This document shows, piece by piece, positions 1,095 to 6,414 of a stretch of DNA of 64,000 bases. A model generated the notes under the pieces. That model saw only the letters and a list, made by a program, of their open reading frames with translations. It was not told where the DNA came from and did no database searches. The stretch's first letter is position 1; each line of letters begins with the position of its first letter. Source of the DNA: Kofleriaceae bacterium. Its GTDB lineage: Bacteria; Myxococcota_A; Polyangia; Haliangiales; Haliangiaceae. Position numbers and translations under genes: made by a program. Location of the stretch: the NCBI GenBank assembly GCA_046597055.1, contig JBKJLC010000196.1, positions 1 to 64,000 of the forward strand, read 5' to 3'.

Positions 1095-2855
1095 TCAGCC
1101 GGCGGCGGAGTCGCGGTGGGGCAGGACGCCGCCGCGCGGGCCGCGGCGGGTCGGGTCGGTCCAGCCGTCGTAGCCGTTGCGCGTCCACGGCGTGGCGTTC
1201 CAGCCGAGCCAGAACCAGCCGGGCGGGACGTCGCCGTGGCGGAGCGCGCGCCGGGTGAGCCCGACCAGGCGGCACAGGCGGTAGCTCAGGGCGACCCGGC
1301 CGGTGTGCGAGGCGGCCAGCGTCTCCTCGGGCGCGAAGCCCGTGTTCAGGCCGAAGCCGAAGAACTCGCGGCCCATGCCGACGATGGTGGTGGCCAGGTT
1401 GAAGACGGCGTGGAACACGCCGGCCAGCGGCAGCGCCAGCAGCTTGTGCCAGTGACCGCGGATGTCGTGGTCCTGCACCATGGCGAGGAAGGTGGCGGCG
1501 CCGCGCATGACGAAGTTGCTCAGATATCCCAGCGCGACCAGCGACAGCCACGCGGCCGGGCGGTCGACGAACGGCCAGGCGAACAGCGCGACCAGGATGA
1601 TCGCGTGGATGCCGACCAGCAGCACCGCGTCGAGCACGACCCACACGCCGACGTCCCACGCGAAGTACGGCATCCAGCCGAACTTCTGCAGAAGCCACGG
1701 CCGCGACGCGTTCCAGCGGACGCGCTGGCGGAACAGCGCCCGGATCGTGGTCGGGGTCGTGGTGTAGACCCGGGCCAGCGGGTCGTAGGCGATCGGCCGC
1801 ACGAAGAACGACCGGATCAGGCGGCCGAGCGCGTGCAGCGGCGAGCGGGGTAGCTCGAGGTCGAGCCGGCCGCCGCGCCAGCGCGCGCCCATCGCCAGCC
1901 AGGCCAGCCAGGTGTCGTCACCTTCGCCGGCGGTGGCCGCCACGTTGGGCGCTCCGGCGAACCCGGCGAAGCTCGGCGGCGCCTGCCCGATCCACCAGCG
2001 CAGCCAGTCACGCCGGTGCAGGGCCAGCATGAACGTGGCGTGGCGGGCCTGCTGATCGTGGAGCTCGGTCCACGTGCAGTAGAGCGCGCCCGACACCGCG
2101 GTCACCGGCAGGAGCCCGCTGTTGTGGCGGGCGACGCTGATCGACGTCATGTACTCGCGCGCGACTTGGAGCGCGAGCTGGCCGCGCACCGTGAAGAACG
2201 TGCGCCAGCCTTGCCAGTAGTGGGCGCGGCGGACCAGCACGTTCGACGCGACGATGATCGGGCGCTGCCGGGTCCAGCGACCAGGCGCGAGCAGCTTGGC
2301 GGCCATGCGCTCGAGGGCGCCGGCGCCCAGCGCGCTGTCGGCGTCCATGTTGAAGAAGACCGTCGGCACGCTGGCGATCTCGCCGGCGGCGGCCGCGGCC
2401 TGGGCGCGGTGCAGCCCGGCCGCGACCGCGACGCCCTTGCCGGCACGGCGCGCGGTCCGCGCTACCAGGATCGTCGTCGTGCCCCGCGGCTGGCGCGCCC
2501 AGCGCTCGAGCTCGCGGACCAGCCGGTCGTGGTCGTCGCTGCCGTCGATCGACAGGCACAGCACGACCGGGCCGGGATAGTGATTGTCGACCACCGAGGC
2601 CGCGGCCGCGTGGAGATCGGCGAGGTCGTCGCGACCGCGCAGGAGCGACGGGATGACCACCAGGATCGCCGGCGCTTGCGCGGGCGCGAAGCCACCGAAC
2701 GGCGGGGTCAGGCGCGCGGTGCGCGCCAGCGCGGCCAGCCACACGCCGAGGTACGACGACTGATAGAGGATCATCCCGATCAGGAACGGCTTCCACAGGG
2801 TGCCGAGGATCTCGATGCCGTCGGCACGGCCGATGCTCCACAGGAGCGCGTCCAT
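1095..2855 (-). CDS. Processive family 2 glycosyltransferase (polysaccharide synthase, PgaC/NodC/hyaluronan synthase-like)
   Basis: N-terminal TM; motifs SIDGS, AGKG, NMDADS (DxD), REY, AVSGAL, GEGDDT, RQRVRW (QxxRW); several C-terminal TM helices. Confidence 0.85.
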   Translation of the reverse strand: MDALLWSIGRADGIEILGTLWKPFLIGMILYQSSYLGVWLAALARTARLTPPFGGFAPAQAPAILVVIPSLLRGRDDLADLHAAAASVVDNHYPGPVVLCLSIDGSDDHDRLVRELERWARQPRGTTTILVARTARRAGKGVAVAAGLHRAQAAAAAGEIASVPTVFFNMDADSALGAGALERMAAKLLAPGRWTRQRPIIVASNVLVRRAHYWQGWRTFFTVRGQLALQVAREYMTSISVARHNSGLLPVTAVSGALYCTWTELHDQQARHATFMLALHRRDWLRWWIGQAPPSFAGFAGAPNVAATAGEGDDTWLAWLAMGARWRGGRLDLELPRSPLHALGRLIRSFFVRPIAYDPLARVYTTTPTTIRALFRQRVRWNASRPWLLQKFGWMPYFAWDVGVWVVLDAVLLVGIHAIILVALFAWPFVDRPAAWLSLVALGYLSNFVMRGAATFLAMVQDHDIRGHWHKLLALPLAGVFHAVFNLATTIVGMGREFFGFGLNTGFAPEETLAASHTGRVALSYRLCRLVGLTRRALRHGDVPPGWFWLGWNATPWTRNGYDGWTDPTRRGPRGGVLPHRDSAAG

Positions 2856-2864
2856 GGCGGACCG

Positions 2865-4091
2865 CTACCGCCGCACCCGCAGCACGCGCTCGCGGATGGC
2901 GTCGGTGTCGGCCAGCGCGAGGATCGCGAACTGGCCGCGGGCCATTTCGCCCCACGGATCCTGGGTGACCACCTCGCCCGGAAGGATCTCGGTGATCCGG
3001 CCGACCTCGTGGCAGCGGAACACCGCCCACGTGCAGTCCATGATGCGGGCCCCGGGCTGGACGCCGGCGAGCTGGTCGTACGGGACGAAGGCGATGTCGG
3101 TTGCGTTGGTCATCGCCCGGTACAGCGGGCGACCCTCGAGCTCGGCCAGCAGCGCGCGCTGGGTCGCCACGCTGGCGACCGCGGCCGCGCGCAGGGCCCG
3201 GTGGCCACGCTGCTCGGCGAGCAACTTCTGGATCTCGAGTTCGACCCGGGCGGCGTGCTCCTCGCCGGCGGCGACCTCGGGCATCTGGCCGACCGCGGGA
3301 GCGCCGCCCTGGCCCGTGCCGGCCCGGAGCGCGCGCAGCGCGGCCCGGTTGTGGGTGCGGAGCACCGTCGCCTCGGCCAGCTGCCGCTCGAGCTCGATCC
3401 GCTCCAGCTCGAGCTGGTCGCGGATCTGCTCCTCCCGGTCGAACGCCGCCCGATCGATGACGCCGGCGTCGAGGTCGGCGCGGGCGCGCGCGACCAGCGT
3501 GACCTGGCGGGTGTGCAGCTTGCCGAGCTGCACGATCTGGCGGCGGAGCAGGCCGGTGGCCGAGTCGAGGCCGCCGGCCTCGACCCGGCTGTGCTCGGCC
3601 TGCCAGGCCAGGGTCGCCTGCGAGCTGCCGCGCAGCTCGGACAGCCGGGCGACCGCGGTGTCGATCGCCTCGAGCTCGCCGTCGAGGCGGGTGACCTCGG
3701 CGTCGAGGCGGGCCTGCTCGGCCAGGGAACGCTGGTGCTGGAGCCGCAGCTGGGCGACCACCTCGCTCTGCGGCGACAGGTGGAGGGGCGCGATCCAGGC
3801 GTCGGTGAGCACCAGGTAGACCTGGGCGCCCGCCCACACCAGGCCGACCAGGGTCGCGATCAGGAGGGTGAGCGCGAACAGCCGGCCGCTCCACGACCGG
3901 CCCGGGGCCGCGTGGGTGGCGCCCGACAGCTCGGTGGTAGTGGTGACCACCGGCGTGTTCCACTGATCGTCGTCGGCCACCGACCGCGGCTCGACCAGGG
4001 CGATCCGGGCGGTGAAGTCGGCATCGACCGCGGTGGGCTCGTCGCTGAAGTCGGCGATGCGAAGGCGATGGCTACTCATGCTGCTGGTCAT
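2865..4091 (-). CDS. Single-TM coiled-coil protein with C-terminal beta domain, membrane-fusion/periplasmic-adaptor-like
   Basis: One TM (LFALTLLIATLVGLVWAG), long heptad-rich helical region, C-terminal IAFVPYDQLAGVQPG...VGRITEILPG; ATGA overlap with the upstream gene. Confidence 0.65.
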   Translation of the reverse strand: MTSSMSSHRLRIADFSDEPTAVDADFTARIALVEPRSVADDDQWNTPVVTTTTELSGATHAAPGRSWSGRLFALTLLIATLVGLVWAGAQVYLVLTDAWIAPLHLSPQSEVVAQLRLQHQRSLAEQARLDAEVTRLDGELEAIDTAVARLSELRGSSQATLAWQAEHSRVEAGGLDSATGLLRRQIVQLGKLHTRQVTLVARARADLDAGVIDRAAFDREEQIRDQLELERIELERQLAEATVLRTHNRAALRALRAGTGQGGAPAVGQMPEVAAGEEHAARVELEIQKLLAEQRGHRALRAAAVASVATQRALLAELEGRPLYRAMTNATDIAFVPYDQLAGVQPGARIMDCTWAVFRCHEVGRITEILPGEVVTQDPWGEMARGQFAILALADTDAIRERVLRVRR

Positions 4092-5188
4092 GGCGTGACT
4101 CCGGCAAGGGCGCGGCGGGCGGTGGCGAGGGCAACTACCGATGCGCGATGCGCGCCCAGCTCGATCCGCGCCACCGTCACGCGCGCGCGCAGCTGACGGG
4201 CGGCGTCGCCGTCGAGGCCGCCGAGGCGGGCGTGTTCGGTGGCGAGCTCGGCGAGCTCGGTGTCGAGGTCCTGTTGTTCGTGATCGAGCTCGGTGACGCT
4301 GTCGCGCATCGCGGTGCGCAGCCGATCGAGCTGGATCGCGACCCCACGCGGGTCACGATCGAGCTCGTCGGCCCGGGCCGCCACCACCTGGCGCTCGGCC
4401 CGGCGTTGCCAGGGCTGCCCGAAGGAGTAGCCGACCGCGGCCACGGCGTACCAGTCGGTACGCTCGCCGCCGGCGACCCCGGCGCGCACGTCGAAGCGCC
4501 ACGCCGCTAGCGTGCGGACGTCACCGCGCCGGCGCTCGGCGTCGAGCGCGGCGCGACGGTAGTCGGTGGCCAGGCGATCGAGCCGGGCCGGCGCGATCAC
4601 GTCGCCGTCGAGCGCCTCGAGCAGGGCCCGGGTCTGGCGCAGCTCGGCGACCCGGGCGCGGAGGCCGGTGCGGCGGGTGCGCAGGTCGTCGACCTCGAGC
4701 GCGGTGGCGCGCTGGCGCTCGAACCGCGCCGCGACCTCGGTGATCAGGGCGTCGATCTCGGGCAGGTGCTGGTCGAGGTACGCCAGCTCGGCGCGGGTGG
4801 CGGCGAGCTGCCCGTAGCGAGCGCCGACCGTGAGCACGTCGTCGAGCCGGTCGCCGATGGCGATCCGAGCGCACTCGGCGGCCGCAACCCGCTGCACCGC
4901 GCGGCCGCGCAGCATGTCGACCGGCGACAGCGCCAGGGCGACCCGGGCCTGCAGGCCGTCGCTCGCGCGCGCGGCCGGATCGGTGGCGTCGATCACGATC
5001 GGCGCGCGCGCGCCCTCGAGCTCGAGCCGGGGCGCGTAGAGCAGCGCCGCCTCCGAACGCGCTTCGGCGCGCAGGCGGTCACAGGTCGCGGCGCCCACGT
5101 CTGCACTGGCAGAGGCGGTGGCGGCAGCGAGCAGGAGCGGGACGACGACGGACGATGAGAGACTGAAGGGGTGTGACTGCGGCGACAA
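4088..5188 (-). CDS. Exported alpha-helical protein, outer-membrane efflux (TolC)-like
   Basis: Probable TTG start at 5188 after GGAG; signal-peptide-like VVVPLLLAAATASASA; two repeats of beta-hairpin plus long helices (PRLELEG...LQARVALALSP; WRFDVRAG...WYAVAAVGYSF). Confidence 0.55.
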   Translation of the reverse strand: MSPQSHPFSLSSSVVVPLLLAAATASASADVGAATCDRLRAEARSEAALLYAPRLELEGARAPIVIDATDPAARASDGLQARVALALSPVDMLRGRAVQRVAAAECARIAIGDRLDDVLTVGARYGQLAATRAELAYLDQHLPEIDALITEVAARFERQRATALEVDDLRTRRTGLRARVAELRQTRALLEALDGDVIAPARLDRLATDYRRAALDAERRRGDVRTLAAWRFDVRAGVAGGERTDWYAVAAVGYSFGQPWQRRAERQVVAARADELDRDPRGVAIQLDRLRTAMRDSVTELDHEQQDLDTELAELATEHARLGGLDGDAARQLRARVTVARIELGAHRASVVALATARRALAGVTP

Positions 5189-5616
5189 GGCGAGACTCCG
5201 TGACCACGAAACGGCAGCGCGATGCGATCGCGCTCGCCGTTCGGGTTGTTCCCGTAACACCCGAGCCTCGAGAATGAGCCTGGCAAAGTATGTCTAACTC
5301 CGTCGAATCACGTTCTTTCCGGTCAGACGCAACCAGCGCGGACGGTGCACGATAGGCGGGCGCTTCGCGAGCATGACTGACCGGCACCGGCGCCTCGATC
5401 GCGTGATCCGGACAGCCGATCTCGAACACGACAACGAAGGTGCGCTGGAGATCGACAATCGCCGGGACGACCTGCCGGCCGCGCCGCCGGCGCGCGCCTC
5501 GAGTCGGGCCGGGCGTCCGGGGGGGCGACCCGGCGCGGCGACCGGCCCGCAGCGCCTGACATGGACTGTGAGGACGGTCGTCAGACCCGCGGCGGGGGGG
5601 AGGCGTCGGCGAGAGG

Positions 5617-6414
5617 ATGTTCGACCGCGTCATCGAGAAGCCCCGCCCGCGCCCCTGGACCACCGTCGTCATCATCGGATCTGCGATCGCCCACGGGCTG
5701 GCGCTGGCTGTGTTGATCGTGGCGGGGATGTGGAAGATCGACAAGTTGCAGTACACGAACACCACCGACATCACGTTCTCGCCGCGACCGCCCCCGGGCG
5801 ACGCCGGGCGCGCACCGGGCAAGAAGCTCGACGTCCTGCGGCCCAAGGTGGTGACGCTGGAGAAGAAGGTCGTGAAGGACACCCAGCCAGCGCTCCTGGC
5901 CGCGGTGGTTCCGCCGGTCGCGGCCACCCCGCCCGACGCGGCGCCGGGCGACGGCGACGGTCCCGGCGATGGCCCGGGCGACGGCGACGGGCCTGACGGC
6001 GACGGGACCACCGGGACCGGCGACTGTCCGGTCGCGCCCTGCGCGCCCGACCGGACCGGCGACGAGCCGGCCGAGCCGGACGTGGTCCCGGACGTGGTCA
6101 AGCCGGTCAACCTGCCACCGCAGGTGGCGCGCGGTTTGCGCATCAGTGGCAACGAGAAGATCTATCCGCCCGAGTCGGTGAAGGTCGACATGCTCCACCA
6201 GGGCAAGGACACGCTCCAGGGCACGTTCCAGATCTGCGTCGGCACCCGCGGGCTGATCGAGAGCGTGCGGATCATGAAGTCGACCGGGTACCGCTCCTAC
6301 GACGACGAGCTGACCGGCGAGATGCGCCAGTGGCGGTACCGCCCGTACCTGGTCGGCGGGTTGGCCTCGCCGATGTGCGCGGTCGAGGTGGTCGTGTTCC
6401 GCATGCGCAAGTAG
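5617..6414 (+). CDS. TonB family energy transducer protein
   Basis: N-terminal TM with SxxxH (GSAIAHGL); Pro/Gly/Asp-rich linker; TonB-C-like YP...G...ICVGTRG...STGY...QWRYRP. Confidence 0.8.
   Translation: MFDRVIEKPRPRPWTTVVIIGSAIAHGLALAVLIVAGMWKIDKLQYTNTTDITFSPRPPPGDAGRAPGKKLDVLRPKVVTLEKKVVKDTQPALLAAVVPPVAATPPDAAPGDGDGPGDGPGDGDGPDGDGTTGTGDCPVAPCAPDRTGDEPAEPDVVPDVVKPVNLPPQVARGLRISGNEKIYPPESVKVDMLHQGKDTLQGTFQICVGTRGLIESVRIMKSTGYRSYDDELTGEMRQWRYRPYLVGGLASPMCAVEVVVFRMRK
5947..6006 (+). repeat. Low-complexity GD/GP coding repeat (GDGDGPGDGPGDGDGPDGDG) in the TonB linker
   Basis: Imperfect GGCGAC/GGCCCG repeats in frame. Confidence 0.6.

Follow-up and report, generated by a model that had tools for sequence, protein, structure and literature searches.

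A conserved three-gene locus encoding a processive synthase, an adaptor-like protein and a predicted TolC-type channel: a candidate polysaccharide export system of myxobacteria

In a 64,000-nucleotide stretch of a Kofleriaceae bacterium assembly (GCA_046597055.1, contig JBKJLC010000196.1, positions 1 to 64,000; hereafter the window), three tightly linked genes encode a predicted TolC-type channel, an adaptor-like protein and a divergent processive family-2 glycosyltransferase (GT2; hereafter the synthase) whose catalytic motifs are intact (Table 1). We consider it likely that this trio carries out synthase-driven export through the adaptor and a dedicated channel, with no separate pump. A nucleotide sugar would be polymerised by the family-2 synthase, which would also drive the chain across the inner membrane; from there a periplasm-spanning tube formed by the anchored adaptor would lead to the predicted TolC-type trimer, through which the chain would leave the cell. 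By analogy with known tripartite pumps, we infer that the channel is an outer-membrane homotrimer docked tip to tip on an adaptor ring, and that export is driven by chain elongation; the synthase would be coupled directly to adaptor and channel. With less assurance, the product might contain an amino sugar and, in many hosts, a uronic acid, and the single transmembrane (TM) helix of the adaptor might complete the synthase, with its four helices, in the manner of co-polymerase subunits in other systems.

The linkage is as the first-pass annotation had described it, with an ATGA overlap between channel and adaptor genes (4088-4091) and a 9-nucleotide (nt) gap between adaptor and synthase genes. 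The G+C content of the three open reading frames (0.90-0.96 at third and 0.50-0.54 at second codon positions) is that of real genes, and we therefore take them as such. In general library scans the synthase had only sub-threshold GT2 matches, and neither the channel nor the adaptor had any match of relevance. A longer reading of the channel (390 amino acids (aa), GTG start at 5260) was dropped in favour of the TTG start.

Table 1. Positions of the three genes and their features in the window.
Feature	Position	Strand	Remarks
Channel gene	4088-5188	minus	366 aa; TTG start at 5188, same start as database protein P0110
Channel features	4088..5188	minus	Four barrel strands (predicted); Cys36/Cys106, Gln80 and Arg82 conserved
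GGAG Shine-Dalgarno-like site	5196..5199	minus	7 nt upstream of TTG start; from sequence
Adaptor gene	2865-4091	minus	408 aa; predicted TM helix and single strand, followed by a very long helical hairpin and a beta domain at the C-terminus
Adaptor TM helix	3804..3893	minus	Residues 67-96
Adaptor C-terminal beta domain	2871..3101	minus	Residues 331-407; Cys353/Cys360 in 101/102
Synthase gene	1095-2855	minus	586 aa; divergent processive family-2 glycosyltransferase; Pfam GT2 families below cut-off
DADS (DxD) motif	2334..2345	minus	Residue 171
GDD motif	1914..1922	minus	Residue 312; D314 is the predicted catalytic base
QRVRW (QxxRW) motif	1713..1727	minus	Residue 377

Conservation of the trio

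Searching with the adaptor identified 50 genome loci, of which the 38 with enough flanking DNA were counted and 12 short ones left out. Both partners were present in 37 of these 38, in the same order in 33 and rearranged in 4; at the exception, L049, the channel is absent from the DNA covered. Another 77 loci, a few of them near duplicates, were found in metagenomes via the synthase: among the 24 with 3 kb upstream, all had the adaptor and 22 the channel, and with 1.5 kb upstream the adaptor was found in 30 of 31. The synthase profile used here, like that of the lipoprotein discussed below, derives from the genome loci; this bears on detection and not on adjacency. Neighbour clustering over the 50 + 77 loci revealed no transporter family recurring beside the trio, so that the neighbourhood survey found a conserved triad without a linked pump, in support of the first-pass annotation. 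In the window itself no ABC/RND transporter, deacetylase or TPR-porin gene adjoins the trio, again in agreement with the first-pass annotation; the trio is flanked by a HEAT-repeat gene and by one encoding a TonB C-terminal domain, and neither a sigma-70 promoter nor a terminator was found above chance.

Synthase and adaptor remain adjacent where the channel is relocated (L048, L050, L184, L186, L199 and L210). Trees of the three genes are congruent (rho 0.82-0.90, 38 loci), a result that we do not count as evidence because shared descent explains it. The adaptor was matched in at least 19 of the 301 genomes of a phylum sample, and named relatives belong to Kofleriaceae/Haliangiales, Sandaracinaceae, Labilithrix and Polyangiaceae, which makes a myxobacterial host the most likely. 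Copies also occur in records labelled non-myxobacterial, namely metagenome-assembled genomes (MAGs) of Pseudobdellovibrionaceae (L050, in the order adaptor-synthase-channel) and Ca. Eisenbacteria (L045). A frameshift or an assembly error divides the synthase match between frames at L021:8025-9753 and at L227:3772-4430.

Predicted folds of the channel and the adaptor

The channel model, built on a 150-sequence alignment (486 representatives at E<=0.001 in the homologue search), reached a predicted local distance difference test (pLDDT) score of 91 and contains two helix-strand-strand-helix-helix-helix repeats, the two beta-hairpin/long-helix repeats that had been read from the sequence; a signal peptide was assigned solely by visual inspection and hydropathy. 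The model had 39 Foldseek matches at E<=0.001, all those listed being outer-membrane factors, with VceC as the best (8.9e-10) and TolC, CmeC, OprM and CusC also among them. When compared as profiles with 24 OEP repeats of the same genome, repeat 1 scored 91% over 135 columns and repeat 2 scored 60%, against 0.7% and 6.6% for reversed controls; the likeness between the two repeats (5.6%) is below significance. The TolC/OEP fold initially suggested for this protein is hence the one that both approaches predict. The Pfam OEP family (PF02321) gave no match on the window protein and rose above its cut-off in 1 of 3 and, separately, in 2 of 86 homologues, while searches of PDB sequences with channel, adaptor and lipoprotein profiles yielded coiled-coil or chance matches, or none. 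With a family median of 366 aa against about 400-490 residues in the matched chains, the channel falls short of solved ones by about 60-100 residues, and the missing part would be the equatorial domain. Cys36/Cys106 are conserved in 142 of 150 sequences, Gln80 in 143 and Arg82 in all 150; the latter two alternate with hydrophobic residues along a barrel strand, an arrangement that would suit a polar or acidic substrate.

For the adaptor, an alignment of 102 sequences gave both the conservation figures and a model (pLDDT 87.5) in which helices 110-209, 214-258 and 271-319 make up a hairpin of about 210 residues, and the single TM helix, very long coiled coil and C-terminal beta domain claimed earlier can all be recognised. 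Strand 98-105 leads directly to helix 110, and helix 322-328 directly to strand 331; no half-motif strands of a lipoyl (barrel-sandwich) domain are present in the model and no such domain was matched in Pfam, nor did Pfam or NCBIfam adaptor families match the protein. The first eight places in the Foldseek list go to EmrA/MacA chains (E 8.6e-7 for the best, with 4 matches reaching E<=0.001), which agrees with the adaptor-like fold put forward at first, if less strongly than in the case of the channel. The layout of inner-membrane anchor, alpha-hairpin and beta domain fits a periplasmic adaptor, at a TM-score to EmrA/MacA of <=0.24, and the hairpin turn is conserved (Leu207 81/102, Gly210 100/102), presumably as a counterpart of the channel-binding tip of adaptors. 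In the Atlas only unnamed Myxococcota clusters were matched. The model thus predicts that the middle protein works like an adaptor, with incomplete membership of the adaptor family.

The reduced size of the channel and the missing lipoyl domain would also suit a scaffold, in which the polymer is released or assembled within the periplasm or at the level of the outer membrane (as wall, coat or slime layer) and the adaptor and TolC-fold protein anchor it with no through-duct. A third type of locus, with a synthase and a short adaptor and no neighbouring channel (C277, L091, L098), points the same way. The channel, however, matches outer-membrane factors over its whole length and has four barrel strands, and the near-invariant Gln80/Arg82 pattern is that of a substrate-facing lumen, if their orientation is as we suppose; we regard a scaffold as very improbable.

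Synthase, sister systems and the possible product

The DADS, GDD and QRVRW motifs, as well as REY at residue 233 and AVSG at 253, lie where the first-pass annotation had located them. QRxRW, DxD, E234, K140 and D314 are present in 44 of 44 aligned synthases and Y235 in 39; the A of AVSG is atypical, GVSGA occurring in 22 and GASGA in 13 of the 44. Because the catalytic motifs are invariant in these homologues, the synthase is likely active. It has two insertions around GDD and a conserved Arg/Trp-rich C-terminal tail, and its NCBIfam scores (25-27 bits) fall far below the cut-offs of 422 and 550. The other GT2 genes of the genome were not recovered by tblastn with the window synthase, plasmid sequences gave no match to it, and a predicted synthase-adaptor complex scored 0.01, which is evidence neither way. 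In profile comparisons the synthase scored 93.7% against a sister family resembling hyaluronan synthase (HAS) and NodC, and 96% against PgaC, 92% against HasA, 83% against IcaA, 65% against NodC and 3.7% against a BgsA candidate of Sinorhizobium meliloti. Since the five latter templates are single sequences and all of them reach 99-100% with the sister family, this ranking is weak, and it may only hint that the lineage is nearer to amino-sugar synthases than to BgsA. The suggestion that the trio contains a synthase of N-acetylglucosamine (GlcNAc) polymers is, as a consequence, plausible and weakly based.

The sister family emerged from 20 regions excised from the phylum-sample genomes with an adaptor match: 2 were of the window type, 14 combined a HAS/NodC-like synthase with adaptor and channel, 2 had such a synthase with a short adaptor and no channel, and 2 a short adaptor alone. 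All three system types coexist in the genome of the window (C161, C177, C277). The best PDB matches of the sister synthase are hyaluronan synthases, and its family scores 99.95% against NodC at 33% identity. On a plasmid of Paraburkholderia sp. PGU19 (L148:2783-8212), adaptor, channel, TviB-like dehydrogenase, GH16-like gene and sister synthase stand in a row, a candidate operon for a uronic-acid/amino-sugar polymer in cultured Burkholderiaceae; the adaptor encoded there has 145 homologues, 119 of 120 among the matches listed fit the window-type profile, and named ones come from Paraburkholderia, Trinickia, Caballeronia, Ralstonia, Cupriavidus and Terracidiphilus. As adaptor and channel accompany a different synthase in 14 of the 20 regions and in Paraburkholderia, the pair tracks polymer synthases and not transporters.

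In the second system of the same genome (C177:4915-9854, L099) a HAS/NodC-like GT2 gene is transcribed divergently from those for adaptor, channel and a secreted protein rich in beta structure; in the third type (C277:39073-41255, L100; also L091 and L098) a HAS-like GT2 has no adjoining channel gene and the adaptor, at 260-285 aa, is about 100 residues shorter. A GT2 with OEP and HlyD genes at C260 was set aside, as it belongs beside an RND pump. The channel is fused C-terminally to a beta-rich accessory domain at L081:7578-9425, L083:4720-6459, L084:7668-9434 and L097:1394-3103, and forms the C-terminus of the long proteins P0259 and P0314, by fusion or read-through; the middle of these two we take to resemble a polysaccharide deacetylase, a family scan of that part having given nothing.

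The closeness of the sister family to NodC, whose gene adjoins the ABC gene nodI, together with the four hydrophobic segments of our synthase and a genome rich in other pumps (25 OEP and 21 HlyD_3 matches), could speak for another route, in which short amino-sugar oligomers or a lipid-linked product are moved into the adaptor-channel duct by an unlinked transporter. We judge this quite unlikely, given that no transporter recurs beside the trio at the loci surveyed, that synthase and adaptor are adjacent at nearly all of them, even where the channel has moved, and that recurring putative glycan hydrolases suit a long chain.

Accessory genes were counted over 127 window-type loci (1.13 Mb of DNA). 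Those that recur are glycan-related, a point in favour of the export model. A nucleotide-sugar dehydrogenase is found at 13 of these, with one copy (C79) in the 8.4-Mb genome of the window, and TviB-like was the best model for 3 of 4 tested; GH16-like enzyme genes adjoin some loci. A beta-rich domain, channel-fused in some cases, occurs at 21 of the 127 loci and in 12 of the 20 other regions, and three secreted-looking families at 6, 16 and 8 of the 127. At 23 of 40 genome loci a divergent gene encodes an unannotated lipoprotein with a conserved acidic motif (e.g. L001:4888-5715), whose nearest named Atlas clusters, DUF4015 and GH18 at 0.86-0.88, are a lead only; a match at L019 was dropped as an opposite-strand frame. 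The labels 'lectin-like' and 'glycoside-hydrolase-like barrel' reflect what we take to be likeness of motifs, family scans having given nothing. In the window, the slot of the lipoprotein is occupied by the TonB C-terminal-domain gene (5617-6414). The HEAT-repeat protein (157-1056), 38 nt past the synthase, carries an N-terminal CxxC...CxxC and is outside the set of recurring neighbours.

The GH16 beta-glucanase-like genes, and an architecture shared with the BgsAB-TolC system described below, would fit a neutral glucan (cellulose-, curdlan- or mixed-linkage-glucan-like), which would make the trio a divergent Bgs/Xcs system and is compatible with the export model. The profile scores (3.7% against 65-96%), a G(D/E)D motif in place of the TED of BgsA, a conserved E(Y/F) ahead of the SG motif and the recurrence of nucleotide-sugar dehydrogenases argue otherwise; a neutral glucan appears rather unlikely to us, and an amino-sugar product, on this weak basis, more likely.

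Several observations weigh against export by the trio as we propose it. The sampled genomes are related and hence are not independent samples. Channel matches in Foldseek had TM-scores of 0.35-0.50 and root-mean-square deviations of 8-11 A, only 3 of 86 channel homologues matched Pfam OEP, and the adaptor coiled coil scored 76% against channel repeat 1 in the same profile test, so that helical noise in this test is real. For the adaptor, TM-scores were low (0.15-0.24), generic coiled coils occupy the Foldseek list from rank 9, the beta domain reached a 17% probability against the HlyD_3 domains of the genome (decoy 0.4%), and the adaptor sequence does not resemble the BgsB candidate of S. meliloti (0.9%). 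The synthase has only four hydrophobic segments and its profile found nothing in PDB; no accessory gene adjoins the window copy, and the lipoprotein has no match in its genome (94% complete).

Comparison with known systems

The combination of synthase, adaptor and TolC-type exit is already known. In rhizobial mixed-linkage glucan (MLG) synthesis, disruption of tolC abolishes MLG and a tripartite BgsA-BgsB-TolC complex was proposed (PMC13438883), and a cyanobacterial cellulose system, XcsAB-TolC, was proposed by Maeda et al. in 2018 and is described as unvalidated (PMC12430437, PMC8892547). As far as the accessible parts of these sources go, they do not support the premise of the first-pass annotation, by which a TPR protein and a porin serve as the exit in every characterised synthase system of Gram-negative bacteria. 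Like the trio, BgsA-BgsB-TolC of S. meliloti pairs a processive GT2 with a neighbouring membrane-fusion-type adaptor and a TolC-type exit, with no dedicated pump. In contrast to our operon-encoded channel, its tolC is an unlinked general channel (PMC13438883, accessible part); BgsB has an HlyD-like domain, whereas the adaptor model is lipoyl-free; and BgsA has seven TM segments and a C-terminus binding cyclic di-GMP, whereas our synthase is remote from the BgsA candidate. The S. meliloti candidates compared here were picked by position and content in an unannotated record and served as single-sequence templates. XcsA-XcsB-TolC(-XcsC) resembles the trio in its proposed tripartite layout and an associated glycoside hydrolase, and is set apart, by its available description, by a cellulose synthase with PilZ and a tolC outside the operon (PMC12430437, PMC8892547); no cellulose-synthase or PilZ match was obtained for the trio in Pfam/NCBIfam scans or for the synthase against PDB.

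EmrAB-TolC and MacAB-TolC pumps share the outer-membrane-factor fold with our channel, and EmrA is the best structural match of the adaptor; unlike them, the trio lacks a transporter gene, and its adaptor and channel are reduced, below Pfam detection. Class I hyaluronan synthase, NodC and PgaC/IcaA share DxD, G(D/E)D and QxxRW with our synthase, which is far more divergent than any of them, the sister synthase being clearly HAS/NodC-like; no Pga/Ica, NodC or hyaluronan synthase family model exceeded its cut-off, and PgaABD, NodABIJ and HasB partners were not among the neighbours. Pga, moreover, exports via a TPR-porin. Alg44 is an adaptor-like co-polymerase, alginate leaving by a TPR protein and a porin in the accessible text of PMC8892547 (for the porin also PMC13438883). 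Bacterial chitin synthases are in some cases encoded close to porin or efflux genes, and their operons have DUF1501/DUF1800 partners, which, going by the part of the description available, separate them from the trio (PMC5122149); TolC is not mentioned in the accessible part of PMC12475490.

TolC-duct export of polysaccharides has so far been based on two systems using the general TolC, where, according to the available portions of PMC13438883 and PMC12430437, a complex has yet to be demonstrated and indirect effects can hardly be excluded. An operon-encoded channel kept with its synthase removes this ambiguity and offers a three-gene test, for which cultured hosts exist in Labilithrix luteola DSM 27648 (L035) for the trio and in Paraburkholderia for the sister type. 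Tentatively, a lipoyl-free adaptor with its own short TolC-type channel could be a self-contained exit for amino-sugar/amino-uronate polymers of hyaluronan/chitin-class synthases, present in myxobacteria, Burkholderiaceae and Acidobacteria and swapped between at least two synthase lineages, that of the window making a new polysaccharide. If so, the literature searched would hold no earlier TolC-type route for synthases of this class, and among trans-envelope polymer machines this three-gene one would be the smallest to reconstitute. The trio also points to unknown surface polymers of myxobacteria in sludge, soil and water, and exposes protein families left hypothetical by current annotation. 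No publication on its protein family was found in the literature searched, which excludes most subscription papers. Of the idea that the locus matches no described polysaccharide system, the part concerning these protein families stands, while the architecture had been published with BgsAB-TolC and XcsAB-TolC; what sets the trio apart is its operon-encoded short channel, its lipoyl-free adaptor and a synthase lineage apparently nearer to amino-sugar synthases than to BgsA.

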